A stretch of DNA of 61,570 bases. Source: a virus. Its lineage: Duplodnaviria; Caudoviricetes. Each line of letters opens with the position of its first letter. Within the stretch, counting starts at the first letter, position 1. The stretch is taken from IMG/VR virus record IMGVR_UViG_3300036853_000133, positions 1 through 61,570 of that record, one strand, 5' to 3'. Shown one piece after another: positions 733 through 27,641 of this stretch. The notes beneath the pieces were generated by a model, which had not been told where the DNA came from, searched no databases, and saw only the letters and a program-made list of their open reading frames with translations. Made by a program: the position numbers and the translations under genes.

Positions 733-1338
733 TCAGGCTGGCTCGATCTGGTCTACGGAGGCGTATTGCTTGGAACTTCCGTTGAAGAGTTCGCACAACA
801 ACTCGATTCGCCCGTCGTCGTCAAGCCTGATGATCTTCATAACAATATCGGCCAACGGGCCTTCCACCATCCTGACGGGCTGACCTGGCTTGTACACGGA
901 ACCAGGCTTGGCCAGCTCAGCCGAGATGCGCTCGGCCTGGCGCAGCAACTCGACATCGCGAGGGCACAGGATGACGTGTTCCCCGTTCCGAACGTAGAAG
1001 CATCGGCCGTTCTGGCGCAGCCCATCGCAATTGTAGATCGGACCGAACCTCCAGCCACGATTGAGAGGCAGGAAGAGGTAGCCACGGAACAATGGCTTGA
1101 TCACCTCGCGCTTGCGCGTCGCGCTCGTTCGGCCGGATCGAACTCCGTAGTTTACGAGCTTGGTTTCCTTCGGCACGAACGGGTCAAAGCCCATGTCTTT
1201 CAGGTTCCGTTCCGCGCGAAGCTCTTTGTTCGGCTCTGTGAGCATCACGAAATAGCGCAGATCAACAACCGGGTCGCAACGCTCGATCAATGAACGAAGG
1301 TCCGCTGACTGTTCGAGCTTTTCCGTTGCCATCAGCAT
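733..1338 (-). CDS. NusG/RfaH-like late antiterminator
   Basis: NGN domain (YFVMLTEPNKE, KPLFRGYLFL) plus KOW (GQPVRMVEGPLAD); occupies the lambda Q position. Confidence 0.9.
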   Translation of the reverse strand: MLMATEKLEQSADLRSLIERCDPVVDLRYFVMLTEPNKELRAERNLKDMGFDPFVPKETKLVNYGVRSGRTSATRKREVIKPLFRGYLFLPLNRGWRFGPIYNCDGLRQNGRCFYVRNGEHVILCPRDVELLRQAERISAELAKPGSVYKPGQPVRMVEGPLADIVMKIIRLDDDGRIELLCELFNGSSKQYASVDQIEPA

Positions 1339-1379: not shown

Positions 1380-2231
1380 TCAGCGGTGCATGCGGCTTTC
1401 TTGCAACGCAGCTAGTTCGGGATCATCATACTCGCCAGACTCGCTCGCGGTCTCTCGGCGTGGTGGAAATAGCGTTGGAAACCACCATCCGGTTCGCTTC
1501 ACGCCGTCGATGATCATCGTTTTCGTCAGCGTCCAGCGAACGCGCTCAGTCGCGAGTTTGTGCGCCATCCAAGCGTCCCACGCTGGTGTTCCCATGTAGA
1601 CGAATATCGGTTTTGCGGCATCGGGATGCAGCGCGCCTTGGGGCACTAGCGGTGGCGCATGATATTTTCGGGGCGCGGCTGCGAATTGGCTCCCCGAATC
1701 CTTTTCTTTCTTGGATGGTTTAGTCTTGGAAGGTTCATCGAGACTCTTCCGCATGCACGCAGGTGCATGCGGACCGGATGCACAGGGAGACATTTCCACA
1801 GGCTCGGAGGCTGGTTCGGAGGTATTTTTTCCGTCGGCATGGCGTGCCGACGGCTCACCAGATATTGCGTCCGCGACCTCGATTTCATCGGGCTCGCTAC
1901 TTGCCGGTTCTTCCTCATTCGCGGTCGATTGCGTTCTGTCGCTTATCCATTCGGCCGGCGCTCGATCGAAGATAATCCAGTAGTCGCTGGCGCGCTGCTT
2001 GCCGTCTTCGGCCTTGCGCAGCTCCTTCCGGATGTAGCCGTTACGGATGAGATCGCCGACGAAGTTGAACACGGCGCGCGCCGAGCATGCGGCTTCCTCG
2101 CCGATTGTGTCGGCCTTAAGCCAGCAGTAGCCGGTCCGATGATCGGCATGATTGGCGATCGACACCAGGACCAGCTTCGGCCTGGCCGGCATGTCCTGTT
2201 CCAGCGCCCATGCGACGGCTTGGATGCTCAT
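1380..2231 (-). CDS. replication initiator with N-terminal winged HTH
   Basis: MSIQAVAWALEQ..KLVLVSIANHAD N-terminus typical of phage HTH_36 replication proteins; ATGA overlap. Confidence 0.75.
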   Translation of the reverse strand: MSIQAVAWALEQDMPARPKLVLVSIANHADHRTGYCWLKADTIGEEAACSARAVFNFVGDLIRNGYIRKELRKAEDGKQRASDYWIIFDRAPAEWISDRTQSTANEEEPASSEPDEIEVADAISGEPSARHADGKNTSEPASEPVEMSPCASGPHAPACMRKSLDEPSKTKPSKKEKDSGSQFAAAPRKYHAPPLVPQGALHPDAAKPIFVYMGTPAWDAWMAHKLATERVRWTLTKTMIIDGVKRTGWWFPTLFPPRRETASESGEYDDPELAALQESRMHR

Positions 2232-2629
2232 CGCGCAGCCTCGATCAGCCCGAGGCGTTTGGCACAACCCAAGAGCCGGCGACCGTCGCGCATGCGGAAG
2301 TATTTGTCGCCCTTGTTGTGAAGCTCAACGAGCCATGGCTCTTCGTCGTCGGTTAGATCCAGTCGGGCTTCGAAACAGCGCTGTAATACGGTGCTCAGAT
2401 TGAAGCCTAAAAGAACATCGACGGGCATCAGATCGTCTCGAATTTGCAAGAGCTTTTCCGCTTGGCGCGTGGAGAATTTGTCGGCGCGACTGTTTCGCGC
2501 GATGCTTTCGAGGAACGTCGTCTCCCATTCGCTGAGAGCGGTGCCGTAGACGTCGAAGACCCGTCGCGCCAACTTGCGGCACGCTTCCTGGTCTGCGCTG
2601 TAAGCGCTGATTTCTCGCCATGGAGCCAT
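2228..2629 (-). CDS. hypothetical protein
   Basis: Coupled ORF with LSEWETTFLESI..FSTRQAEKL motif. Confidence 0.65.
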   Translation of the reverse strand: MAPWREISAYSADQEACRKLARRVFDVYGTALSEWETTFLESIARNSRADKFSTRQAEKLLQIRDDLMPVDVLLGFNLSTVLQRCFEARLDLTDDEEPWLVELHNKGDKYFRMRDGRRLLGCAKRLGLIEAAR

Positions 2630-8307: not shown

Positions 8308-9405
8308 CTAAACGTGGCACGGCATGATGACGCCAACGATATCGGCGTCATCCGGACTCTCGACGCGAATAGGATCGCCGGGACCGTCTATGAACAGACG
8401 AAGACGCGTGCCTCCGATCGCACTAACGACGGCCTGAATATCATCGAGACGCATTCCCACCTCGCCGGGATCGCGCCCCGAACAATCGCAATCGATATGC
8501 TCTGCGCCTTCGCCGAACTTTGAGCGCAGAACAACGTCGATTGACTCGACATCATCTCGCCAACTCAGCTTGACGACGGTCGTGAGTTCGGGATCGCGTG
8601 CCGTCAGGAGTCGACCAAGGCCTGCGTCGATATCTTCCCGCATGACCGCGATCACGGGGGCGGCTGCATCTGGGATAACGCGTGGATAGTCCGGATAAGT
8701 CCCGTCAATGAGCTTGCTGACATAGCGGCGCCCCGCAGCCTGAATTGCGATCAGATTCTTCGTTACTTCGATCTGTGCTTCATCGATTGCGCCGGCCGTG
8801 CGAACGAATTCAGCGCATGCTTTTTCAGGAACTATGACGCCCTCGAACTTAGGCGATTGAGCATCGGAGAAAACGCGCACGAGCGTGTGACCGTCAGTCG
8901 CGACAGCCGCGAGTCGGTCATTCATACGATGAAGGTAGATTCCGCACAGATACGCCCGACTGACTTCCTGGGAGATGCAGGCGTCAGGCGTCTTGAACAG
9001 GCGTGCAACCTGTTTGCCGGTCAGTGAGAACGTAACGGGGTCTTTGGGAGTCAGGACCAGCGGGAAATCAGCCGCCGGCAATAATCCAAACTGATAGCTC
9101 GATCGTCCGCAACGCACGCGAGCTAACACGTTGTCTGTGTCGCAGACGACCTGTGAACCGTCGGGCCAACCCATAATTAGGCGCGAGAAGCGATCCGAGG
9201 GCATCGCAACCGCGCCTCCGGATGTGACTTCAGCCGGGATCGTTGCCTGGCTACAAGAGTCCAGATCGTGGCCCGTGATCTTGATCGATTGTCCTTCCGC
9301 CTCGATCAGAAGGTGCGACAGAATCGGGATATTATTGCCCTTCGCGCGTGCCGAAACGACGTGCAAGGCCTCCTTGAGTGCGTCACGCTCGACAAGAAAT
9401 TTCAT
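8308..9405 (-). CDS. dnaN: DNA polymerase III beta clamp
   Basis: 365 aa; [44 protein letters not shown]. Confidence 0.95.
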
Positions 9406-9411
9406 GATGCC

Positions 9412-9738
9412 TCAGATCTTCCGACCGATGGCGTCATGCAAACCAAGCATGGCGCGGTTGAATTCATCAGGTCGCGGGATGTCGAAGGTCAGCTTGCCAA
9501 CCGGACGGTCAAGCGCGTCGCAGACCCTGTGCGCGGCATCCGTCGCGGCGGTCAGGCTTTCCTCTTCCTCCGCTTTAAGGCGCTGAATTTCGTTGTTTTT
9601 TTCTTCGATCTCATCTTCGTGAGCGCTTTGGGCGGACTTTATCGCCTCTTTGGCGTCATCAATCGCCGAGGTGACCGCGCGTTGTGCCGCGTCGAGTGCA
9701 TCAAGGACACCTTCAAGTCTGGTATCACTACTTGCCAT
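9412..9738 (-). CDS. coiled-coil hypothetical protein
   Basis: GGAGG RBS; heptad pattern. Confidence 0.65.
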   Translation of the reverse strand: MASSDTRLEGVLDALDAAQRAVTSAIDDAKEAIKSAQSAHEDEIEEKNNEIQRLKAEEEESLTAATDAAHRVCDALDRPVGKLTFDIPRPDEFNRAMLGLHDAIGRKI

Positions 9739-9972
9739 TACCAACCTCCAATGTTGATCTTGTCCGCACACAGGCGTGATGGATGGATGAGGCGAGATCG
9801 TTTGCGTAGACGTCATGAATTGCATTGCAGATGTCGACGCTGGCGCAGTCGCTCTCATCGCAACAGTTCGGACATTCCGGCGGTGCTGTCGCCCTGACGT
9901 GGTTGTGTGTCCGTTCGATCATCTCGTTGAGTGAGGGGTGATCGCGATGGGGTTTGAAGGGATTGCGATGCA

Positions 9973-10629
9973 TCATGTGGCCTCCGCACGCGCGAGCGCG
10001 AGTTGCTTTGCGAACGAGGGCAACAGCTTCATGCATCGCGACAGATACTGTTTCTGCGCGACCTCCCATGGCCACGGGAGAAGGATGCGCTCCGCAAGCG
10101 TCATGACGTTTTCATAGGGTGCCCAATTCGGATGCTCGATGCCCTGCATCAGGTCGCGCCATTCCGTCACGAACATCACCTTGTCCCAGTACTTCACGTT
10201 CGTGATGATCTCGGGATCTTCAGGAGGCCAGGCGAGGCCTGCAGCTTCGTGAATGGCAACGTCGTGGCGATATTCTATATTCTTGATGACAGCCAGGACG
10301 TACTCGGCATCGATTCCGCATTGTGCTTCGCACTCTTCTGCGATGGCTTTTTTGTAGGGCGTCGTTTTGTCCTTCAGTACGTGTTCGTGGCCATCGTGGA
10401 CGTGGAAGTAGGCCGCAAGCAGCCGATCGCCGGTCAAGCGGATGATGGCGTCACTTCCGCGACATTGATGTTCGGCGACCGAATAGAACTTGCCGGGCGT
10501 TGCGCCGTTGAAGCGCGCTTCTTTTGCAGTCTGTTCGGCAATTACATTCCAATCGATATCGTTTGCGTGCGGGGCACGAAGATCGATGCCGCGACCGTTG
10601 GCAAGCGTGAGGATGGTTTGCGCCGACAT
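9973..10629 (-). CDS. HD-domain phosphohydrolase (YfbR-like 5'-deoxynucleotidase)
   Basis: RFNGAT..YSVAEH, HDGHE, D..MFVTEWRDL. Confidence 0.85.
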   Translation of the reverse strand: MSAQTILTLANGRGIDLRAPHANDIDWNVIAEQTAKEARFNGATPGKFYSVAEHQCRGSDAIIRLTGDRLLAAYFHVHDGHEHVLKDKTTPYKKAIAEECEAQCGIDAEYVLAVIKNIEYRHDVAIHEAAGLAWPPEDPEIITNVKYWDKVMFVTEWRDLMQGIEHPNWAPYENVMTLAERILLPWPWEVAQKQYLSRCMKLLPSFAKQLALARAEAT

Positions 10630-10641
10630 GTTTTATGATTC

Positions 10642-10923
10642 TCAGATGAACTGCGCCGGCTTCCTGTTCGGGTATTCCCGATGCAGGAATTCCGCGATGT
10701 CTTTGTCGATGGGTGTTTGATGAATGCGGGTGCGGACACGCGGGGCGTTGCGCCAGTCAGGCTCTTCCAAGTTTCGGAAGAATGCACGCAAGAGCATGCG
10801 AATGATGGCGTAGATGATCGCGCCGATCAGAAGGGCCGCAGCGATGACGCCTGCGCAGATGAGTGCAATCGTGACAAACAGCGCCCAATCGACGTTGATG
10901 CTGGCTGCTGCAATAAGTGCCAT
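10642..10923 (-). CDS. membrane protein
   Basis: Long hydrophobic N-terminus. Confidence 0.6.
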   Translation of the reverse strand: MALIAAASINVDWALFVTIALICAGVIAAALLIGAIIYAIIRMLLRAFFRNLEEPDWRNAPRVRTRIHQTPIDKDIAEFLHREYPNRKPAQFI

Positions 10924-11045
10924 GTGCGCAAACCTTCGATACGGCAAGAGACCGTCAGTCGTCTTGTCGGGATGAAGCTGTTACGCGAGGCTCACGCTTA
11001 CATTTACTGGCAGGGAGGAAACGAAAAGTAGAAATCAGATTTGGT

Positions 11046-11288
11046 TCAGTCCGAGAGCAGTGCCCGCGGTTTCGTGAGTGCCATCACCCTCACGCATCGC
11101 CCGTTGAATGAGACCTCTTCAACGAGCTTGGCGGTGAGAAGCGCCTTCAGTGTCGGGTTTTCGAAGTTGATCATCTCGTAGCCGCCGGGCTCGCGTGCCC
11201 TGCGAAGCGCATAGGCGGCGCCGCATTCGCCTAAGAGGCCGCAACGGTTCGCCTTAGCGTGTGGGCATGCCTTGAGGATGCACGTCAT
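11046..11288 (-). CDS. hypothetical protein (also the C-terminus of the 1021-codon ORF)
   Basis: GGGAGG RBS; ATGA overlap with the upstream ORF. Confidence 0.55.
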   Translation of the reverse strand: MTCILKACPHAKANRCGLLGECGAAYALRRAREPGGYEMINFENPTLKALLTAKLVEEVSFNGRCVRVMALTKPRALLSD

Positions 11289-11443
11289 GCCGCCCTCCCC
11301 TGAAAAGTCGCCGGGCAATGCATGTGCTGCAGACACAATGCACCCTTGACCGCGTCCGGGTCCGCGTTCGTCAGCAATACCGCCGAACAGACAGCGCTGA
11401 CGTTCGCCGTTCCATTCAGCCCGTGTACGGCGATCAACCGCAC
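11285..11443 (-). CDS. small hypothetical protein
   Basis: GTG start, GC3-rich codons, ends GRAA with ATGA coupling. Confidence 0.45.
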   Translation of the reverse strand: MRLIAVHGLNGTANVSAVCSAVLLTNADPDAVKGALCLQHMHCPATFQGRAA

Positions 11444-11449
11444 GCAGCT

Positions 11450-12160
11450 TCGCTCTTTCGCGCTGGGGTATGGTGAAATAGATCTCGCGGCCCGGGCATG
11501 TCCGGGGATGCAGTCCGGCGCCGTTGGCTCTCCGGAGGAAACGGTTTCTGCACCACGCCCCGCTAGCGTGTTCGGAAGCGATCCGAACAATCCGCGAGAA
11601 CTCCCGGGTGAGACTGGACCGCTCGCTACCCATCCCGGCTTGATCGTGGCTTTGGTGGTACATGTCGCCGTCTGGACGCAGCCTCTGGCTCCCACATCCC
11701 GCCACGATCGCACGGGCCAAAGCCTCGTCCGTCCGCTCACCCGAACTGAATTCTGCGATGTGGGAGCCAAGCGCGAAGCTTGCAGCCGCCCCACATCGCA
11801 CGCCCGTTCGTGGACATTTATAGGCCGTCTTGAACGGAGCCGAAGTCATCCAGCCTTGACGTTCCGCTGGTGCGGAAACGAACGGAATGCAGACGCACTG
11901 CTCTTCGCCGCAGATTTCGCATGCTGCATTCGAATTGAATCGAGCGACCGCTAGCCCTTTGATGCGGTCACGCACCCTTCCCTGTCGCTCAATACGCGTT
12001 GAAGCGAAACGCGAGTCGGTTGACCTGGGTTGATGGATGGCGAGTCTGTCGCTCGAACTGAATTGGTCCGGGGAACCTACGACGCCCCGGCTCGCCGCCG
12101 CTTTCGCGGGCAAGTCCAAATGATCTTTTCCGTAGTTCCGAAGCTGTGCAATTTTGGAGA
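11450..12160 (-). ncRNA. putative structured RNA array (part 1)
   Basis: Consecutive hairpins and multibranch stems separated by AATTCAGTTCG-like linkers; no convincing protein gene. Confidence 0.45.
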
Positions 12161-12229
12161 GCGTTACGATCTCTTCATTCGTGCCTCCTGGGTTATCCCG
12201 CGACGGGACGGGGAACGTGGTTGCGGCAA

Positions 12230-12406
12230 TCAGTCGCTTGCGCAGGCAATGCCGCGAGGCCACCAGATATGCAGCGCAATCGGGCCGGCGCGAAGCGTGA
12301 AGCCGTTGCCGAAGTTGATCTTGCCCCAGCGTTTGCCGTGGCCGCGATAGCCGACGATCAGCGCCAGCTTCGTTTGGTTGCCCTTCGGGCCGATGGCGAG
12401 TCTCAT
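12230..12406 (-). CDS. small hypothetical protein (58 aa)
   Basis: Hand-translated MRLAIGPKGNQTKLALIVGYRGHGKRWG..; ATGA coupled. Confidence 0.55.
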   Translation of the reverse strand: MRLAIGPKGNQTKLALIVGYRGHGKRWGKINFGNGFTLRAGPIALHIWWPRGIACASD

Positions 12407-12828
12407 GATCTGCCTCGATCTGTGATGGCGAGAACTTTGCGGCCGACCTCGGCTTCACGCTCCCGGTCAAGCCACCATGCGGCGTTACAGCCATCCATGA
12501 ATGCGTCGTGAAACGGCGCTCCGTGATCGGAGCGGAAGAGAATGCGCAGGAATTCGACGGGCGGCTTGCGGCGCTGGCCTGGGTCGCGCGTGACGAAAGC
12601 GTAGCAACTGGTGCGTGGCCAGCCAGTGGCAAGGTGCAGAAGCTGTCCGGTTTCCTTGTTGCCGAAAACCGCTGTGGCGCAGCCGTAAAACCAATCGTCA
12701 GAACCTTTCGCTCCCGCTTCCGGAACAGGCATTTCGATCCGTAATCCCGATTCCGGACGACGATCGATTCCGCTTTCGGGAGCGGCATTGATTGCGGCGA
12801 TCTGCGCTTTCGACAATGGTTGATGCAT
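12403..12828 (-). CDS. putative CII-like regulator
   Basis: Position downstream of cro; HTH-like TGQLLHLATGWPRTSCYAFV. Confidence 0.5.
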   Translation of the reverse strand: MHQPLSKAQIAAINAAPESGIDRRPESGLRIEMPVPEAGAKGSDDWFYGCATAVFGNKETGQLLHLATGWPRTSCYAFVTRDPGQRRKPPVEFLRILFRSDHGAPFHDAFMDGCNAAWWLDREREAEVGRKVLAITDRGRS

Positions 12829-12860
12829 GATGATTTTCCCCGTTGATGATCTGAAGTTCT

Positions 12861-13693
12861 CGCGCTCCGAGCGCTGCCAGCCACAGTCCCCGTGGCAACG
12901 CTCGGATGCGCGTAGCTCCAGCCGACATGACACGGGGATGCATCATGCCGGCTGGACCCGTCGTCAGCCTGGCCGGGCTGGGACGGGAATTGGAACGCAA
13001 CGCAACGCAGTGGAACGGACACAACATGCGAACGGGCACGAAGGTCGGACTGATACTGATCGGATTGATCTGGCTCGCCGTGTCGACGGGCATCAGCGCG
13101 CACTTCGTCATGAAGGCGCAGAGCGAGGCTGCTCAAACGAAATTCATGGACCCGCTGCGTGTGTATCGCGGGCGCGTACCGGCGGGCGCCAGATCCCAAG
13201 GCGGTCTTTGGGTCTGAGCGTCCGCCGGCAGTCTCCAACGCATATCGGCCGACATCTGAGGTCGCTGGGAGGCAGGCTCCCAGACATCGGCCGATCTCTC
13301 TCGCCTGGAGGGCGGAGGGAGACGATTGGAATGCGCATCGGCCGACGCCTGGGAGGTGCTGGGGGGCGGGACTCAGACGCCGGCCGATCTCCTGCGTGGG
13401 GACGCGCGGAGAAGATTCAAATTGGATCGATTGCGGTAAGTCCGGCTTGTGAAGTTCCAAGCCTGAATATCGAGCTGCCTGAGGCCCGGAACGTTCCACT
13501 CCGGGGTGACGGCAAGAGCGCGGGCGGACCAGTGCACGGGTTCGCTCGCGTGCGGGCGGGCTTTGATGCTCGAGCAGGTCGAAGTGTCGCTGCGGCAGGG
13601 CTGTTAATTCTGGGGAAAACTCGGAACCAGCAGTGGTATTCGGAATGTGAAAGTGACAGCCGCAAGCGATTGGAAACCCTTGCGGCAGTGTCA
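12861..13693 (-). ncRNA. putative structured RNA array (part 2)
   Basis: About ten strong hairpins, including a 93-nt tandem duplicated unit with C-rich loops. Confidence 0.5.
13026..13217 (+). CDS. small membrane protein, antisense to the lytic transcript
   Basis: MRTGTKVGLILIGLIWLAVSTGISAHFV transmembrane segment. Confidence 0.45.
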   Translation: MRTGTKVGLILIGLIWLAVSTGISAHFVMKAQSEAAQTKFMDPLRVYRGRVPAGARSQGGLWV

Positions 13694-13817
13694 TTTGATA
13701 CGATGCCGGCAACCCCTTACCCGGCTCAGATGTGGTCAATATTGACCAGTCAGGGCACGGGAAAATTTCACAACCTACACCCGTGGAACGCTGTTGCTTT
13801 GAAACGGGTGCGTCATC

Positions 13818-14114
13818 ATGGGAGCCAGTCGCGAGTTTGCCACGCAGTACACGGAACCGACGATCATCCACGACATCTTTGCAAGCGGAGCTGCACATGC
13901 GGTCGCCATCAACGGCGGATGTGTGCGGCTGACCTGGTACGTCGATATCCCGCTGTTCACCCCGGATGGGGTTCTGGAACATCGCATCGTCGATCGCGTG
14001 GTGATTCCACAGGAAGCCATCCCTGGATTGATGCTGATGCTCGGCAGCGCGATGGTCACCCAAACAGAAGGGTTGTTTTCGATCGCTCGACGGGTGCCGA
14101 AGATCGGTCACTGA
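13818..14114 (+). CDS. hypothetical protein convergent with cro
   Basis: Protein-like composition (IIHDIFASG..VRLTWYVD..IVDRVVIP). Confidence 0.6.
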   Translation: MGASREFATQYTEPTIIHDIFASGAAHAVAINGGCVRLTWYVDIPLFTPDGVLEHRIVDRVVIPQEAIPGLMLMLGSAMVTQTEGLFSIARRVPKIGH

Positions 14115-14341
14115 GCGGCCTCCGCACCAACGCGGGCGCCCCCGCCTCCAACGAACGCCATGATCGGAACGACTCCGCCCGTCGCTTCGCTGAGCTTCAC
14201 GGCCATGTTGAGCGAGGGCGTCTTCTTGCCGCTCAGGATTTCAGACAGGTAGGGCTCCGATAGCCCGGCAGCTTCGGCAAACCGAGCCTGCGAGGTGTTC
14301 TTTGCGATCCAGGCCTGAAGTGGATGCGGCGAATCATTCAT
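14108..14341 (-). CDS. cro: Cro-like HTH repressor
   Basis: SQARFAEAAGLSEPYLSEILSGKKTPS..LSEATGGVV; divergent from cI. Confidence 0.85.
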   Translation of the reverse strand: MNDSPHPLQAWIAKNTSQARFAEAAGLSEPYLSEILSGKKTPSLNMAVKLSEATGGVVPIMAFVGGGGARVGAEAAQ

Positions 14342-14348
14342 GACCGAA

Positions 14349-14401
14349 AACTTAGCTATCGGCGAACATATAAGTCAAGAACGAAATTCGCTATCGGCGA
14401 A
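14349..14401. promoter_or_regulatory. OR operators and PR promoter
   Basis: TTAGC-N5-GCGAA (14352-14366) and TTCGC-N5-GCGAA (14387-14401); minus-strand TTGACT-N18-TAAGTT. Confidence 0.8.
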
Positions 14402-14435
14402 TGGACCGTTCTCGCATACACTTCGACACTCGGGA

Positions 14436-14768
14436 ATGCCGCGACCGAACCGCAATTCCCGATCGAAGCCGCCCCGGCGCCTGTTCCTGGGTCTCTGGCT
14501 CAAGCGCTTGAACCGCAAGCAGGCCGAGATTGCGGAGGCGGCCGGGATCACTCCGACCTACGTTTCTGAGCTAGTCAATGATCCGGGCAAGAACCCGTCT
14601 CCCACGGTTTTGCTCGATATTTCAGAGGCTTTGGGCCTCACGGTGAATGACCTCTACAATATGCCCCCAGCCATCGAGGCAACCGAAGCCGCAGGCAAGC
14701 TCAACCCGGCTCAGCTCGCGACACTCGGGCGGCTTTTGGATGAGATGAAGCCGATCAAGCGGCGGTAA
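14436..14768 (+). CDS. cI: CI-like XRE repressor (no S24 peptidase domain)
   Basis: KQAEIAEAAGITPTYVSELVN..PS..LLDISEALGLTVNDL; flanked by operators. Confidence 0.85.
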   Translation: MPRPNRNSRSKPPRRLFLGLWLKRLNRKQAEIAEAAGITPTYVSELVNDPGKNPSPTVLLDISEALGLTVNDLYNMPPAIEATEAAGKLNPAQLATLGRLLDEMKPIKRR

Positions 14769-14824
14769 TCTGATTTCATTTCCTTGAGAACGATCCGGGA
14801 ACATCAGACCTGTGGACAAATGAG

Positions 14825-14877
14825 TTAGCTAGTGGCGAATATTTCGCTTGACGGCTAGCTTCGCTATCAGCTAAGTT
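14825..14877 (+). promoter_or_regulatory. OL operators and PL promoter
   Basis: TTAGC-N5-GCGAA (14825-14839) and TTCGC-N5-GCTAA (14860-14874); TTGACG-N18-TAAGTT. Confidence 0.8.
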
Positions 14878-14925
14878 TCTCCCACGAACCCAAAACTGAT
14901 TCACGCCTGAGGGGTTCGGGGGAAG

Positions 14926-15132
14926 ATGAAGATGGCCGAGCGCACGCCCCACACTGTCACTTTTCGCCGCGCCCCGAACATGGACCGCGAGATGGTCACC
15001 AAGTGCAGCGTCAACGAGGCGCACGCGTTCTGCGACAATCAGGCGCGCATGAATATTCTGCACCACACCATTTCCATCGCGGATGCCGATGGCAAGGTTG
15101 TCTACCGCGGCCCCGCCCCTGAGGCCGCGTGA
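14926..15132 (+). CDS. hypothetical protein (first PL gene)
   Basis: RBS; first ORF after PL. Confidence 0.6.
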   Translation: MKMAERTPHTVTFRRAPNMDREMVTKCSVNEAHAFCDNQARMNILHHTISIADADGKVVYRGPAPEAA

Positions 15133-26256: not shown

Positions 26257-26709
26257 ATGACTAAGACCACACCCTCACGAGACGATTTCGATCCCAACCA
26301 GCCCATCCGTTTGGCGCTGGCGGCCGAGATCGTCTATGGCGAGGGTGGTATGACGGCCAGTGGATTGAGGCGGGAGGCAGCGCGGGGACGGCTTGTAATA
26401 GAACGCACGGCGGGCAAGGATTACACCACCTTGGCCAACATCGACAGAATGAGGGAGGCATGCCGGCTCGATCAAAAGGCCCGCGCCTGTGGTGGCGAAA
26501 GCCCCGGCGCAGCAAAAGAACCGGCAAAATCACCCACCCAGGCGTCTGGATCATTCGCGATGGAAAGCGTCAGACGAGCACAGGCTGCGGCCACAACGAT
26601 CTTGACGGAGCTGCAAGGAAGCTCGCCGAGTATATCGCCCGAAAGCACGTCGTCACAACGACGAAGGGCGGGCCGCGTGATCCCGCTGAAATCCCCGTCG
26701 CCGACGTGA
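26257..26709 (+). CDS. xis: excisionase
   Basis: IRLALAAEI..MTASGLRREAARGRLVIERTAGKDYTTLANIDRM; overlaps int. Confidence 0.8.
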   Translation: MTKTTPSRDDFDPNQPIRLALAAEIVYGEGGMTASGLRREAARGRLVIERTAGKDYTTLANIDRMREACRLDQKARACGGESPGAAKEPAKSPTQASGSFAMESVRRAQAAATTILTELQGSSPSISPESTSSQRRRAGRVIPLKSPSPT

Positions 26710-27641
26710 TTGCGCTTTATGCAAAGAACGTCGTGCCGGGGCACGCAAGACCAAAGGAAACCGCACAGCGGCTCGCACGCGTTCTGACGTTCTTCGGCGG
26801 CGATATGCTCGTCTCGATCAACGGCGATCGCTGCCGCGCCTACGTCAAGTCCAGATCCACAGATGCTGCCGCTCGAAAGGAACTGGAAGACCTCCGCGCC
26901 GCAATCAACCATCATCGCAAGGAAGGCCATTGCGAGAAACTGATTTCGATCGTGCTGCCGGCCCGGCGCGTGAACCGGGAACAATGGCTGACCCGGCAAG
27001 AGGTCGCCAAGATGGTCTTTGCGGCCTGGCAATATCGGGAGATTCAGAAGGGCACACGAACGGACCGGCGATCGCGCCAGCATGTCGCCAAGTTCATTCT
27101 GGTCGGATGCTATACCGGCACGCGGGCGGGCTCGATCTGCGCCGCCGCCCTCCAGCCAACGCCGGGGCATGGATGGATCGATACCGAGCGCGGCGTGTTC
27201 TACCGCCGCCCTAGGGGGCGCAGGGAGACTAAGAAACGTCAGCCAGCCATTCCGCTGCCGGCCAAGCTGATGGCACACATTCGGCGCTGGAAACGGCGCG
27301 GACAACGGTTCTGCGTGGAGTGGAATCGAGAGCAGGTCCGGGATGTCGACAAGGCGTTCCGGCGCAATGCCTCCGAAGCCGGGGTCAAGGCCACCCCACA
27401 CACACTACGACACACGGCCGCTACCTGGCTGATGCAGGAGGGAGCGGACCCATGGCAGGCTGCGGAATATCTCGGAATGACGCTGAAAACGCTACTGGAC
27501 AACTACGGTCATCATCATCCGGAGCATCTGCGCGGGCCAAGAAACGTATTCGATCGGCCGCCACAGCAACGCCACAACATCCAGTCAACAGACCAAGAAC
27601 AAACGTCATCGAACGTGGTGAAAATCAGTGGCAAACATTGA
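26460..27641 (+). CDS. int: tyrosine integrase
   Basis: YTGTR, TPHTLRHTAATW, YLGM, NYGHH. Confidence 0.95.
   Translation: MPARSKGPRLWWRKPRRSKRTGKITHPGVWIIRDGKRQTSTGCGHNDLDGAARKLAEYIARKHVVTTTKGGPRDPAEIPVADVIALYAKNVVPGHARPKETAQRLARVLTFFGGDMLVSINGDRCRAYVKSRSTDAAARKELEDLRAAINHHRKEGHCEKLISIVLPARRVNREQWLTRQEVAKMVFAAWQYREIQKGTRTDRRSRQHVAKFILVGCYTGTRAGSICAAALQPTPGHGWIDTERGVFYRRPRGRRETKKRQPAIPLPAKLMAHIRRWKRRGQRFCVEWNREQVRDVDKAFRRNASEAGVKATPHTLRHTAATWLMQEGADPWQAAEYLGMTLKTLLDNYGHHHPEHLRGPRNVFDRPPQQRHNIQSTDQEQTSSNVVKISGKH

Follow-up and report, generated by a model that had tools for sequence, protein, structure and literature searches.

The window analysed here is the whole of the IMG/VR virus record IMGVR_UViG_3300036853_000133, which comprises 61,570 bp and is rated 73% complete. 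On its minus strand, the interval 11450-12160 lies within an array of about 940 nucleotides (nt; 12230-11289) in which stem-closed modules are spaced by AUUCARUUCG linkers. We incline to the view that this interval is the core of a noncoding array of folded, linker-spaced RNA modules in the early operon of a soil phage. One of the modules, module 4, is shown by comparison with its relatives to be a member of a large, uncatalogued family of H-type pseudoknot RNAs that is absent from Rfam 15. An earlier note on this DNA had described the interval as an RNase-processed cluster of novel noncoding RNAs, organised like a phage tRNA cluster.

The surroundings of the array are those of a phage early region. 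In Pfam and PHROG searches, a cro-like gene (14108-14341, minus strand) and a cI-like gene (14340-14768, plus strand) form a divergent helix-turn-helix pair, which marks a lysis/lysogeny switch. Leftwards from the cro-like gene all genes are on the minus strand, and the first 3 kb or so are without any family match. The cro/cI pair, the leftward minus-strand genes and an integrase indicate the early operon of a temperate-type phage, with the minus strand as the transcribed strand. The genes and open reading frames (ORFs) are as follows (aa, amino acids; dNMP, deoxynucleoside monophosphate):

11046-14111, minus strand: 1021-codon ORF that spans the array up to the cro-like gene, its GTG start overlapping the cro stop as GTGA
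12403-12828, minus strand: 141-aa gene without Pfam or PHROG family, with 27 homologues in soil-type metagenomes
12230-12406, minus strand: 58-aa ORF without Pfam or PHROG family, joined to the 141-aa gene via ATGA
11046-11288, minus strand: 80-aa gene with a Cys-rich N-terminus and no Pfam or PHROG family, which terminates the array; it stands leftward of the ~3-kb orphan region and is followed by a membrane protein
9973-10629, minus strand: dNMP phosphatase
8308-9405, minus strand: sliding clamp
leftward early region, minus strand: methyltransferases and a primase-like protein
1380-2267, minus strand: O-like replication initiator
733-1338, minus strand: antiterminator-family protein, Q-like, with a match to phrog_6386
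beyond the antiterminator-family gene: terminase, head, tail and lysis genes
26460-27641, plus strand: integrase

The homologues of the 141-aa gene range from 83 to 148 aa, and all but two of the 27 have 124-148 aa. The 80-aa gene is likewise real, because 30 of the 51 phmmer matches to the long ORF are proteins of 70-117 aa that cover only its residues ~942-1017; protein P0003 is 72% identical to the 80-aa gene. The ORFs that overlap the interval (the long ORF, 11285-11794 on the minus and 11322-11954 on the plus strand) and the neighbouring orphan ORFs have no Pfam or PHROG family. Near-identical DNA occurs in two soil metagenome DNA runs, but contigs from both are identical and so hold no variant information. 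Protein patterns found no close relatives in viral_contigs or genome_contigs, the relatives found for the flanking dNMP phosphatase are all at most 35% identical, and a plasmid BLAST search with the region gave no match.

Within this operon, the array consists of these elements:

12173-12217, minus strand: array head, with a hairpin CCCG-UCG-CGGG at 12207-12197
12189-12184, minus strand: Shine-Dalgarno sequence AGGAGG of the array head
12178-12164, minus strand: mini-ORF MKRS* of the array head, in a frame that differs from the long open frame
12068-12114, minus strand: module 1b, a GAAA-loop hairpin and an adjacent CCGGGG...CCCCGG hairpin, with ..GGACCA at its 3' end
12064-12054, minus strand: linker 1, AAUUCAGUUCG (DNA AATTCAGTTCG), a near-identical direct repeat of family D2
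11940-12056, minus strand: module 2, a three-way domain closed by a stem of 9 bp, CGAGCGAC/GUCGCUCG, around a variable and a conserved hairpin
11940-11931, minus strand: linker 2, AUUCAAUUCG (DNA ATTCAATTCG)
11860-11930, minus strand: module 3, a hairpin at 11930-11886 and a small hairpin at 11880-11860
11803-11856, minus strand: module 4, the H-type pseudoknot, matched by covariance model R1 and supported by covariation within its family
11754-11800, minus strand: strong hairpin with an 11-bp stem
11752-11742, minus strand: linker 3, AAUUCAGUUCG (DNA AATTCAGTTCG)
11606-11742, minus strand: module 5, closed by GGGUGAG/CUCACCC, its ends conserved and its middle variable among relatives
11595-11603, minus strand: linker-like GAGUUCUCG, followed by hairpins at 11590-11530
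11300-11440, minus strand: module 6, with hairpins GUCAGC...GCUGAC and UGCAUUGUG...CACAUGCA

Module 6 is followed by the Shine-Dalgarno sequence and ATG of the 80-aa gene, which set the 3' limit of the array. The three linkers stand where the earlier note had placed them, and ATTCARTTCG has only these three copies in the 61.5-kb window, all within the interval (mean of shuffled sequences 0.48; 2 of 100 shuffles reach three). The stem after each linker opens with the linker's UCG and closes with CGA right before the next AUUCA, both in the window and in L064, a metagenome contig described below. No further copies of modules or linkers were found elsewhere in the window.

The pseudoknot family and its genomic neighbourhood

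A phage BLAST search with a 3.3-kb query had module 4 as its sole match, 51 nt at 87% identity in Xanthomonas phage RiverRider, where it occupies an unannotated gap right after seven tRNA genes. A first pattern of two constant blocks retrieves 46 viral stretches, a second one with a different block pair at least 119, and an expression for the full motif fits 75 distinct sequences. Covariance model R1 matches all 84 of the 84 supplied loci at 39.8-80.1 bits, against a best background score of 19.5 bits among ~494 kb from 35 unrelated phage loci (555 kb once the window is included). Its match in the window, at 11861-11797, scores 67.6 bits and is the sole copy there. The window copy is built as follows:

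11856-11851 / 11827-11822, minus strand: stem 1 (P1), AGGCUG pairing with CGGCCU
11841-11832 / 11809-11803, minus strand: stem 2 (P2), CUCCGUUC pairing with GAACGGG, with one U-G pair
module 4, minus strand: loop 1 (L1), GAUGACUUC, and loop 3 (L3), AUAAAUGUCCAC

Throughout the family the order is P1 5' strand (nnnCUG), L1 (GAUGRYUUn), P2 5' strand (four to seven variable bases, then UUC), AAGA, P1 3' strand (CGGn'n'n'), L3 (nUAAAUGUCYAn) and P2 3' strand (GAA, then the partners of the variable bases). The window copy conforms to the conserved loops GAUGRYUU, UUCAAGA and UAAAUGUCYA. Over 83 distinct sequences P1, which is absent from the model, is paired in 99.4% of cells, with two positions that alternate between AU, GC, UA and CG (38/29/10/4 and 44/26/11/2); for P2 the figure is 98.1%, and three to four of its pairs covary. 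None of 500 shuffles reaches the covariation score, controls with a slid partner pair in 24-47%, and a smaller first alignment agrees on the covariation of both stems. The invariant U-G and the many G-U pairs make the fold strand-specific, and it is therefore one of RNA. The base R of GAUGR in loop 1 furthermore varies together with the base before AA (A:G 45, G:C 20, A:U 7, G:U 1, A:C 2; n = 75), which points to a contact of loop 1 with stem 2 of the kind found in triple-helix pseudoknots.

A pseudoknot backed by covariation thus exists in the interval, but it is module 4 and not module 5, which the earlier note had singled out. In module 5, the complementarities 11655-11648/11724-11717 and 11650-11642/11709-11701 share three bases (11650-11648), and they are therefore alternatives instead of a knot; their 3' partner falls in the part that differs in the relatives P0002 and P0007. 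The helices that RNAalifold proposes in 167-nt variants of the family, a GACG/UGUC hairpin and a long-range helix, were not adopted because they rest on invariant columns. No description of the motif was found in the literature, by word searches only, which is weak evidence that it is unpublished.

The genomic setting of the family was counted over 74 motif loci with ARAGORN. The tRNA and transfer-messenger RNA (tmRNA) genes at these loci are on the strand of the motif in 55 cases and on the opposite strand in two. Of the 74 loci, 19 have a same-strand gene of this kind within 2 kb, 14 within 500 nt and eight within 100 nt. The motif begins 4-21 nt past a tRNA end in L133, L186, L112 and L123, while in L171, L177, L068 and L127 a tRNA begins 50-69 nt behind it. 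As 14 of 60 unrelated phage loci also hold a tRNA, the signal is one of proximity and strand, and not the mere presence of tRNA genes. A permuted (two-piece) tmRNA is found ~190-340 nt downstream of the motif in L098 (1351-1924), L076 (3701-4419) and L169. In these three loci and in L189, which has 15 tRNAs, a site of the form TTGmmn-17-TAnnnT ends 7-8 nt before P1, and if these sites are promoters the transcript would begin with the pseudoknot itself. At most of the loci, the motif stands within open stretches of just 25-140 codons and is noncoding for that reason. In 26 of 84 contexts the motif has a conserved hairpin, CsGGrrArACsGG, 22-239 nt downstream of it, which is missing from the window copy; the spacing of this hairpin suggests discrete RNAs of ~100-200 nt that would be headed by the pseudoknot.

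Several smaller observations concern the same loci. The motif may belong to the leader of alphaproteobacterial-type ssrA transcripts in L098, L076 and L169. The downstream hairpin has a fuller form, GACAsCCGGrAAGACsGG (for example in L082 2570-2736), whose middle differs between groups. L085 (8031-8149) and L110 (~170-420 nt past the motif) carry tRNA-like genes that contain long insertions and lie between complementary flanking sequences such as CCATCAT...ATGATGG or CCACACA...TGTGTGG, and similar flank stems surround other modules in L112, L111, L103 and L074. In L062, an unrelated viral contig, the pseudoknot lies between AATTCG motifs inside a 452-codon ORF (8438-9796, minus strand) whose N-terminal part is protein-like, as an in-frame insertion or a miscalled fusion.

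The position of the family at predicted transcription starts of untranslated operons, in four loci, speaks for the notion that the whole array serves the 80-aa gene and those that follow as a single long cis-acting leader, without releasing free RNAs; it would act, for example, in put/nut-type antitermination (in the place of the lambdoid nutR) or in translation control. The array does lie past the cro-like gene and before the replication genes, and in the window as in L064 it starts with a conserved Shine-Dalgarno sequence and mini-ORF and ends at the Shine-Dalgarno sequence of the next gene. The likeness to put/nut-type RNA is one of position (downstream of cro, and with the pseudoknot at about +1 in the four other loci). 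The array is 1.9-2.8 kb from cro with real genes between, however, the pseudoknot also stands 4-21 nt behind tRNA genes in mid-array, module content varies freely among relatives, and the phage has its own Q-like match to an antiterminator family. A leader of this kind is distinctly unlikely.

Known RNA families do not account for the pseudoknot. Rfam 15 gives no match at gathering score in the window and nothing relevant at E ≤ 10 in 11000-13800. A hammerhead was rejected: the motif CUGGAUGA has one extra G compared with CUGANGA, its GAA is followed by a variable paired base, and no Rfam match is found. None of the hepatitis delta virus (HDV)-like, hammerhead, pistol and guanidine-III folds fits the pseudoknot. 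Theta (HDV-like) ribozymes deserve a closer comparison, as they too are reported to be small pseudoknotted RNAs within a few nt of phage tRNA genes (Nat Commun 2024, PMC10879173). In the pseudoknot, C-G-A-A right before the P2 3' strand has the position of the HDV-like catalytic C (J4/2). Unlike theta ribozymes, however, the family has no P3/L3 hairpin, with only UUCAAGA between the P2 5' and P1 3' strands, and no P4; it matches no Rfam ribozyme, and in 30 of 75 copies C or U stands in place of the G of CGAA, changing together with a loop base. As alignments A3 and A5 leave no room for P3/L3 or P4, the pseudoknot is by its fold not a member of the theta/HDV-like class. The SAM-II and preQ1-II riboswitches are triple-helix H-type pseudoknots. 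The family resembles them in its length of ~55 nt, in the order P1, L1, P2, P1', L3, P2', in its conserved loops and in the loop-1 base that covaries with stem 2; it differs from them in having no sequence likeness and no Rfam match, and in standing beside tRNA/tmRNA genes and transcript starts instead of metabolic genes.

Modules and linkers in relatives of the array

Comparison of the array with its relatives shows that the modules are conserved as nucleotide blocks which are differently combined from one relative to another. The phmmer matches to the long ORF other than the 30 short proteins, 21 of the 51, are ORFs of 161-942 aa with a junk-like composition, in which translated modules occur in varying combinations. 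In alignment A1 of such ORFs, whole blocks are present or absent between shared flanks, and there is no conserved stretch. The head is read as FPVPSRDNPGG in P0004, P0005, P0008 and P0015, all four of which combine it with module 1b, and P0006 has module 1b and a partial head; module 1b is read as PAKAAxSRGG in six of nine aligned ORFs. Module 2 is found in seven of the 21 long ORFs. Modules 3-4 are identical in P0001, where module 3 is read as NAACEICGEEQCVCIPFVSA. P0002 and P0007 keep the FSSGERTDEALAR and QAGMGSERSSL of module 5 and have its middle replaced. Module 6 occurs in P0080-P0083, P0001 and P0005 with 66-91% identity, read in another frame, and its stem letters are constant while its loop is variable, as far as translations show. 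Behind it, the relatives have either a Shine-Dalgarno sequence and ATGA or more linkers and modules. FSS/FNS linker peptides recur in these ORFs, several of which hold extra modules absent from the window.

The one relative found by DNA, L064, is a metagenome contig of 1450 bp and encodes P0008. Its head is identical to that of the window in 40 of 45 bases and has the mini-ORF MKR* (L064 600-670). It shares module 1b (fold z score -1.60 relative to shuffled sequence) and module 2, with 80% identity over 148 nt; the latter has the same architecture, but its inner hairpin differs and it is 12 bases shorter (z -2.39, 3 of 200 shuffles as good). A 170-nt extra module separates module 1b from module 2, and two other modules lie behind. 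The module folds of L064 have z scores of -2.39, -3.07, -1.84 and -4.42. Substitutions between the window and L064 are spread over all three codon positions. DNA patterns for the array head, module 5 and module 2 had no match in viral_contigs, and the pattern for module 1b had three metagenome and one genome loci, among which L064 is the only true relative, the others (L063, L065 and L066) sharing merely 23-24 nt with module 1b.

In the window itself the folds differ in strength. The hairpin at 11800-11754 is the strongest (z -3.34, none of 200 shuffles as good), followed by module 2 (z -2.40, 4 of 200) and module 5 (z -2.19, 5 of 200; z -1.71 including the linker), whose GGGTGAG/CTCACCC closure at 11742-11606 is as the earlier note had given it. 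The folds of module 3 (z -0.88, and part of a piece at -0.93), module 6 (z -0.44), the hairpins at 11590-11530 (z -0.57) and module 1b (z -0.17) are not significant; in module 1b the hairpin before GGACCA has 6 bp and an 11-nt loop.

The claim of a cluster organised like tRNA genes stands in part. The array is modular, stem-closed and linker-spaced, and one of its modules is a pseudoknot RNA that adjoins tRNA and tmRNA genes elsewhere; the tRNA-like end, the pseudoknot of module 5 and the proposed switch are all without support from conservation. The end in question, CCCCGGACCA, is present at 12073-12064, but its ACCA is ACCCA in L064. A tRNA acceptor of the ..NCCA type was rejected likewise, GGACCA of the window being GGACCCA in L064. 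A tRNA or tRNA cluster was also dismissed, with no cloverleaf by ARAGORN or Rfam RF00005; ARAGORN reports no tRNA or tmRNA gene across the whole window. As for the switch, 11769-11757 is a perfect 13-nt complement (pair I8) of 11698-11686, and the competing 11-bp hairpin with 11800-11790 is the strong one just described, but the alternation between them is without comparative support.

The open frame through the array

A difficulty for a noncoding array lies in one of its reading frames. On the minus strand this frame is stop-free from 14242 to 11049, over 1064 codons, whereas its two companion frames on that strand contain 35 and 23 stops in 10900-14300. In this phage, alternative frames of 35 family-supported genes have 0.015-0.037 stops per codon, and no long one is stop-free; from this density some 25-30 stops would be expected. 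The frame crosses the 141-aa gene (in another frame), the 58-aa ORF, two plus-strand ORFs and ~1.7 kb without genes; for the two plus-strand ORFs it is the usual low-stop 'shadow' frame. Within the array itself, the three frames have 0, 11 and 4 stops in the window and 0, 7 and 7 in L064. A purely noncoding array does not predict such a frame, and its openness therefore counts against one.

Other results weigh on the same side. The whole interval 11450-12160, for which the earlier note had expected folding better than shuffled controls, folds no better than they do on the minus strand (z -1.28, 2 of 20 as good) or on the plus strand (z -0.24). Only two of ten sub-pieces, module 2 and the hairpin 11800-11754, clearly beat shuffles, and the other eight are not significant. 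A scan of the minus strand at 9800-15000 found no sigma-70-like promoter and no terminator-like site besides 14402-14386. Modules 1b, 2 and 5 have one DNA relative (L064) or none, and rest on single-sequence folds and junk-frame ORFs. For module 4, the patterns fixed CTGGATGACTTC, TTCAAGACGG and AAATGTC in turn, so that the invariance of these letters is in part built in; none of the covarying positions was constrained.

The open frame is what the noncoding reading cannot explain, and it is the main evidence for an alternative in which the modules are selfish, palindrome-ended insertions that entered in frame at one hot spot, each duplicated the AATTCAGTTCG target, and persist because they leave a translated filler ORF uninterrupted. 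Ribosomes reading on from the cro stop as far as the following real gene would then guard the early transcript from Rho, and the folds would arise as a side effect of the palindromes. L064 has the same frame open, the 21 long phmmer matches are ORFs of this junk-frame type, insertions and deletions between relatives keep the frame, near-identical direct repeats of 10-11 nt flank each module, and the GTGA start of the ORF sits on the cro stop. Furthermore, eight of ten fetched junk-frame ORFs have GR(A/V)(V)A, RRSA or a similar sequence at their end; in L064 and in the frame-1 ORF of the window this reading corresponds to the Shine-Dalgarno sequence and ATGA of the next gene, and the open run stops at that ATGA in L064 and in the second open frame of the window.

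Several findings speak against insertion. The pseudoknot is plainly a functional RNA, which in most other loci lies in short open stretches, and the modules and linkers are single-copy in the window. No transposase gene lies near the modules other than one of IS256 type in L064. Besides, the long frame passes through the real 141-aa gene and two plus-strand ORFs, and the conserved Shine-Dalgarno sequence and AUG of the head open a different frame that stops after four codons. Relatives reached by protein search are moreover biased to open frames, since closed-frame relatives are invisible to it; L064 was reached through DNA. Dispersed elements offer a comparison. Rickettsia palindromic elements, REP/BIME and RIME are short palindrome-ended units in varied combinations, with tens to hundreds of dispersed copies in a genome, and the Rickettsia elements stand in frame and stop-free inside genes. 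The array resembles the latter in being stop-free and frame-keeping, in the window as in L064, and it is unlike them in that each module is single-copy within the phage record. On balance, insertion as the origin of the whole array is unlikely. The two main readings are compatible, as functional RNA modules may themselves spread in the manner of cassettes.

A real protein gene in the interval had been named by the earlier note as a refutation of its reading, which half escapes it: the 1021-codon ORF does span the interval, but its composition is junk-like and it belongs to no family. That this ORF encodes a genuine large, disordered, Arg-rich modular protein, with incidental RNA-like features, is very improbable, although the frame is open over 3.2 kb, relatives have long ORFs in the same frame and the FSS/FNS linker peptides recur. 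As a candidate protein gene the ORF was rejected on its missing family, its gene-unlike codon GC, the substitutions at all codon positions and its overlap with a conserved gene, the 141-aa gene in another frame with homologues of 83-148 aa. It is rich in Arg, Ala, Ser, Gly and Pro, and the GC content at codon position 2 is 0.50-0.66 in the long frame as against 0.41-0.56 in the genes of this phage. The different frame of module 6 in relatives and the noncoding setting of the pseudoknot elsewhere also argue against a protein.

Possible release and roles of the modules

If the array is noncoding, it would be transcribed together with the early operon. The linker would present single-stranded AUUCARU, followed by the UCG that opens the next stem, and host endonucleases might cleave the linkers or sites next to them, or else the closing stems, yielding small stable RNAs. 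Such a release would parallel that of stable non-tRNA RNAs from phage tRNA clusters. These clusters have long been known to contain extra stable RNAs without known function, among them species 1 and 2 of phage T4 (rnaC/rnaD), which lie inside its tRNA cluster. The likeness is that both are small structured RNAs on the tRNA strand, in or beside arrays, as the pseudoknot family is in the 19 of 74 loci with a nearby same-strand gene; T4-type RNAs are presumably released by the host enzymes that process stable RNA. The window differs from T4 in that it is tRNA-free and the array stands in an early mRNA operon, with a linker of its own and one stop-free frame; the likeness is one of context.

What the pseudoknot does may be guessed from where it stands. 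Our guess, at odds well below even, is that it is a 5'-terminal or punctuating element of stable-RNA transcripts, which protects their 5' end or marks it for processing. A ribozyme, an antitermination RNA, a ligand sensor and a protein decoy are other possible roles. A more far-reaching combination, which is rather unlikely, would join a new RNA class that marks 5' ends or junctions of stable-RNA transcripts, whether of tRNA arrays, permuted tmRNA or phage RNA arrays, with an ORF-compatible array of more than 3 kb that, in this phage lineage, doubles as translated filler and as a source of folded RNAs. The pseudoknot could then be self-cleaving, guide an RNase or make the polymerase resistant to termination, while ribosomes coupled to the cro stop would read through the array and shield the early transcript.

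The family itself is well supported, uncatalogued and widespread, extending over the viral stretches counted above from a Xanthomonas phage to contigs with permuted tmRNA. Its position is telling, at transcript starts and tRNA junctions and also within a tRNA-free mosaic array of an early operon. Should the modules be set free as RNAs, they would be candidates for functions in host take-over or anti-defence. If the 1064-codon frame is kept by selection, the array would be an unusual sequence constrained both as RNA structure and as an ORF.

Rightward of the array, the CCAAT(T) copies that the earlier note had listed are confirmed at 13425, 13329 and 12993. In the same region, 13237-13391 holds a tandem pair of 93-nt units, each of which forms a hairpin whose arms are 15 nt long, ATCGGCCGACATCTG ... 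CAGACATCGGCCGAT. The units directly follow a plus-strand ORF (~13026-13217) for a small membrane-like protein and are recognisable in P0001.

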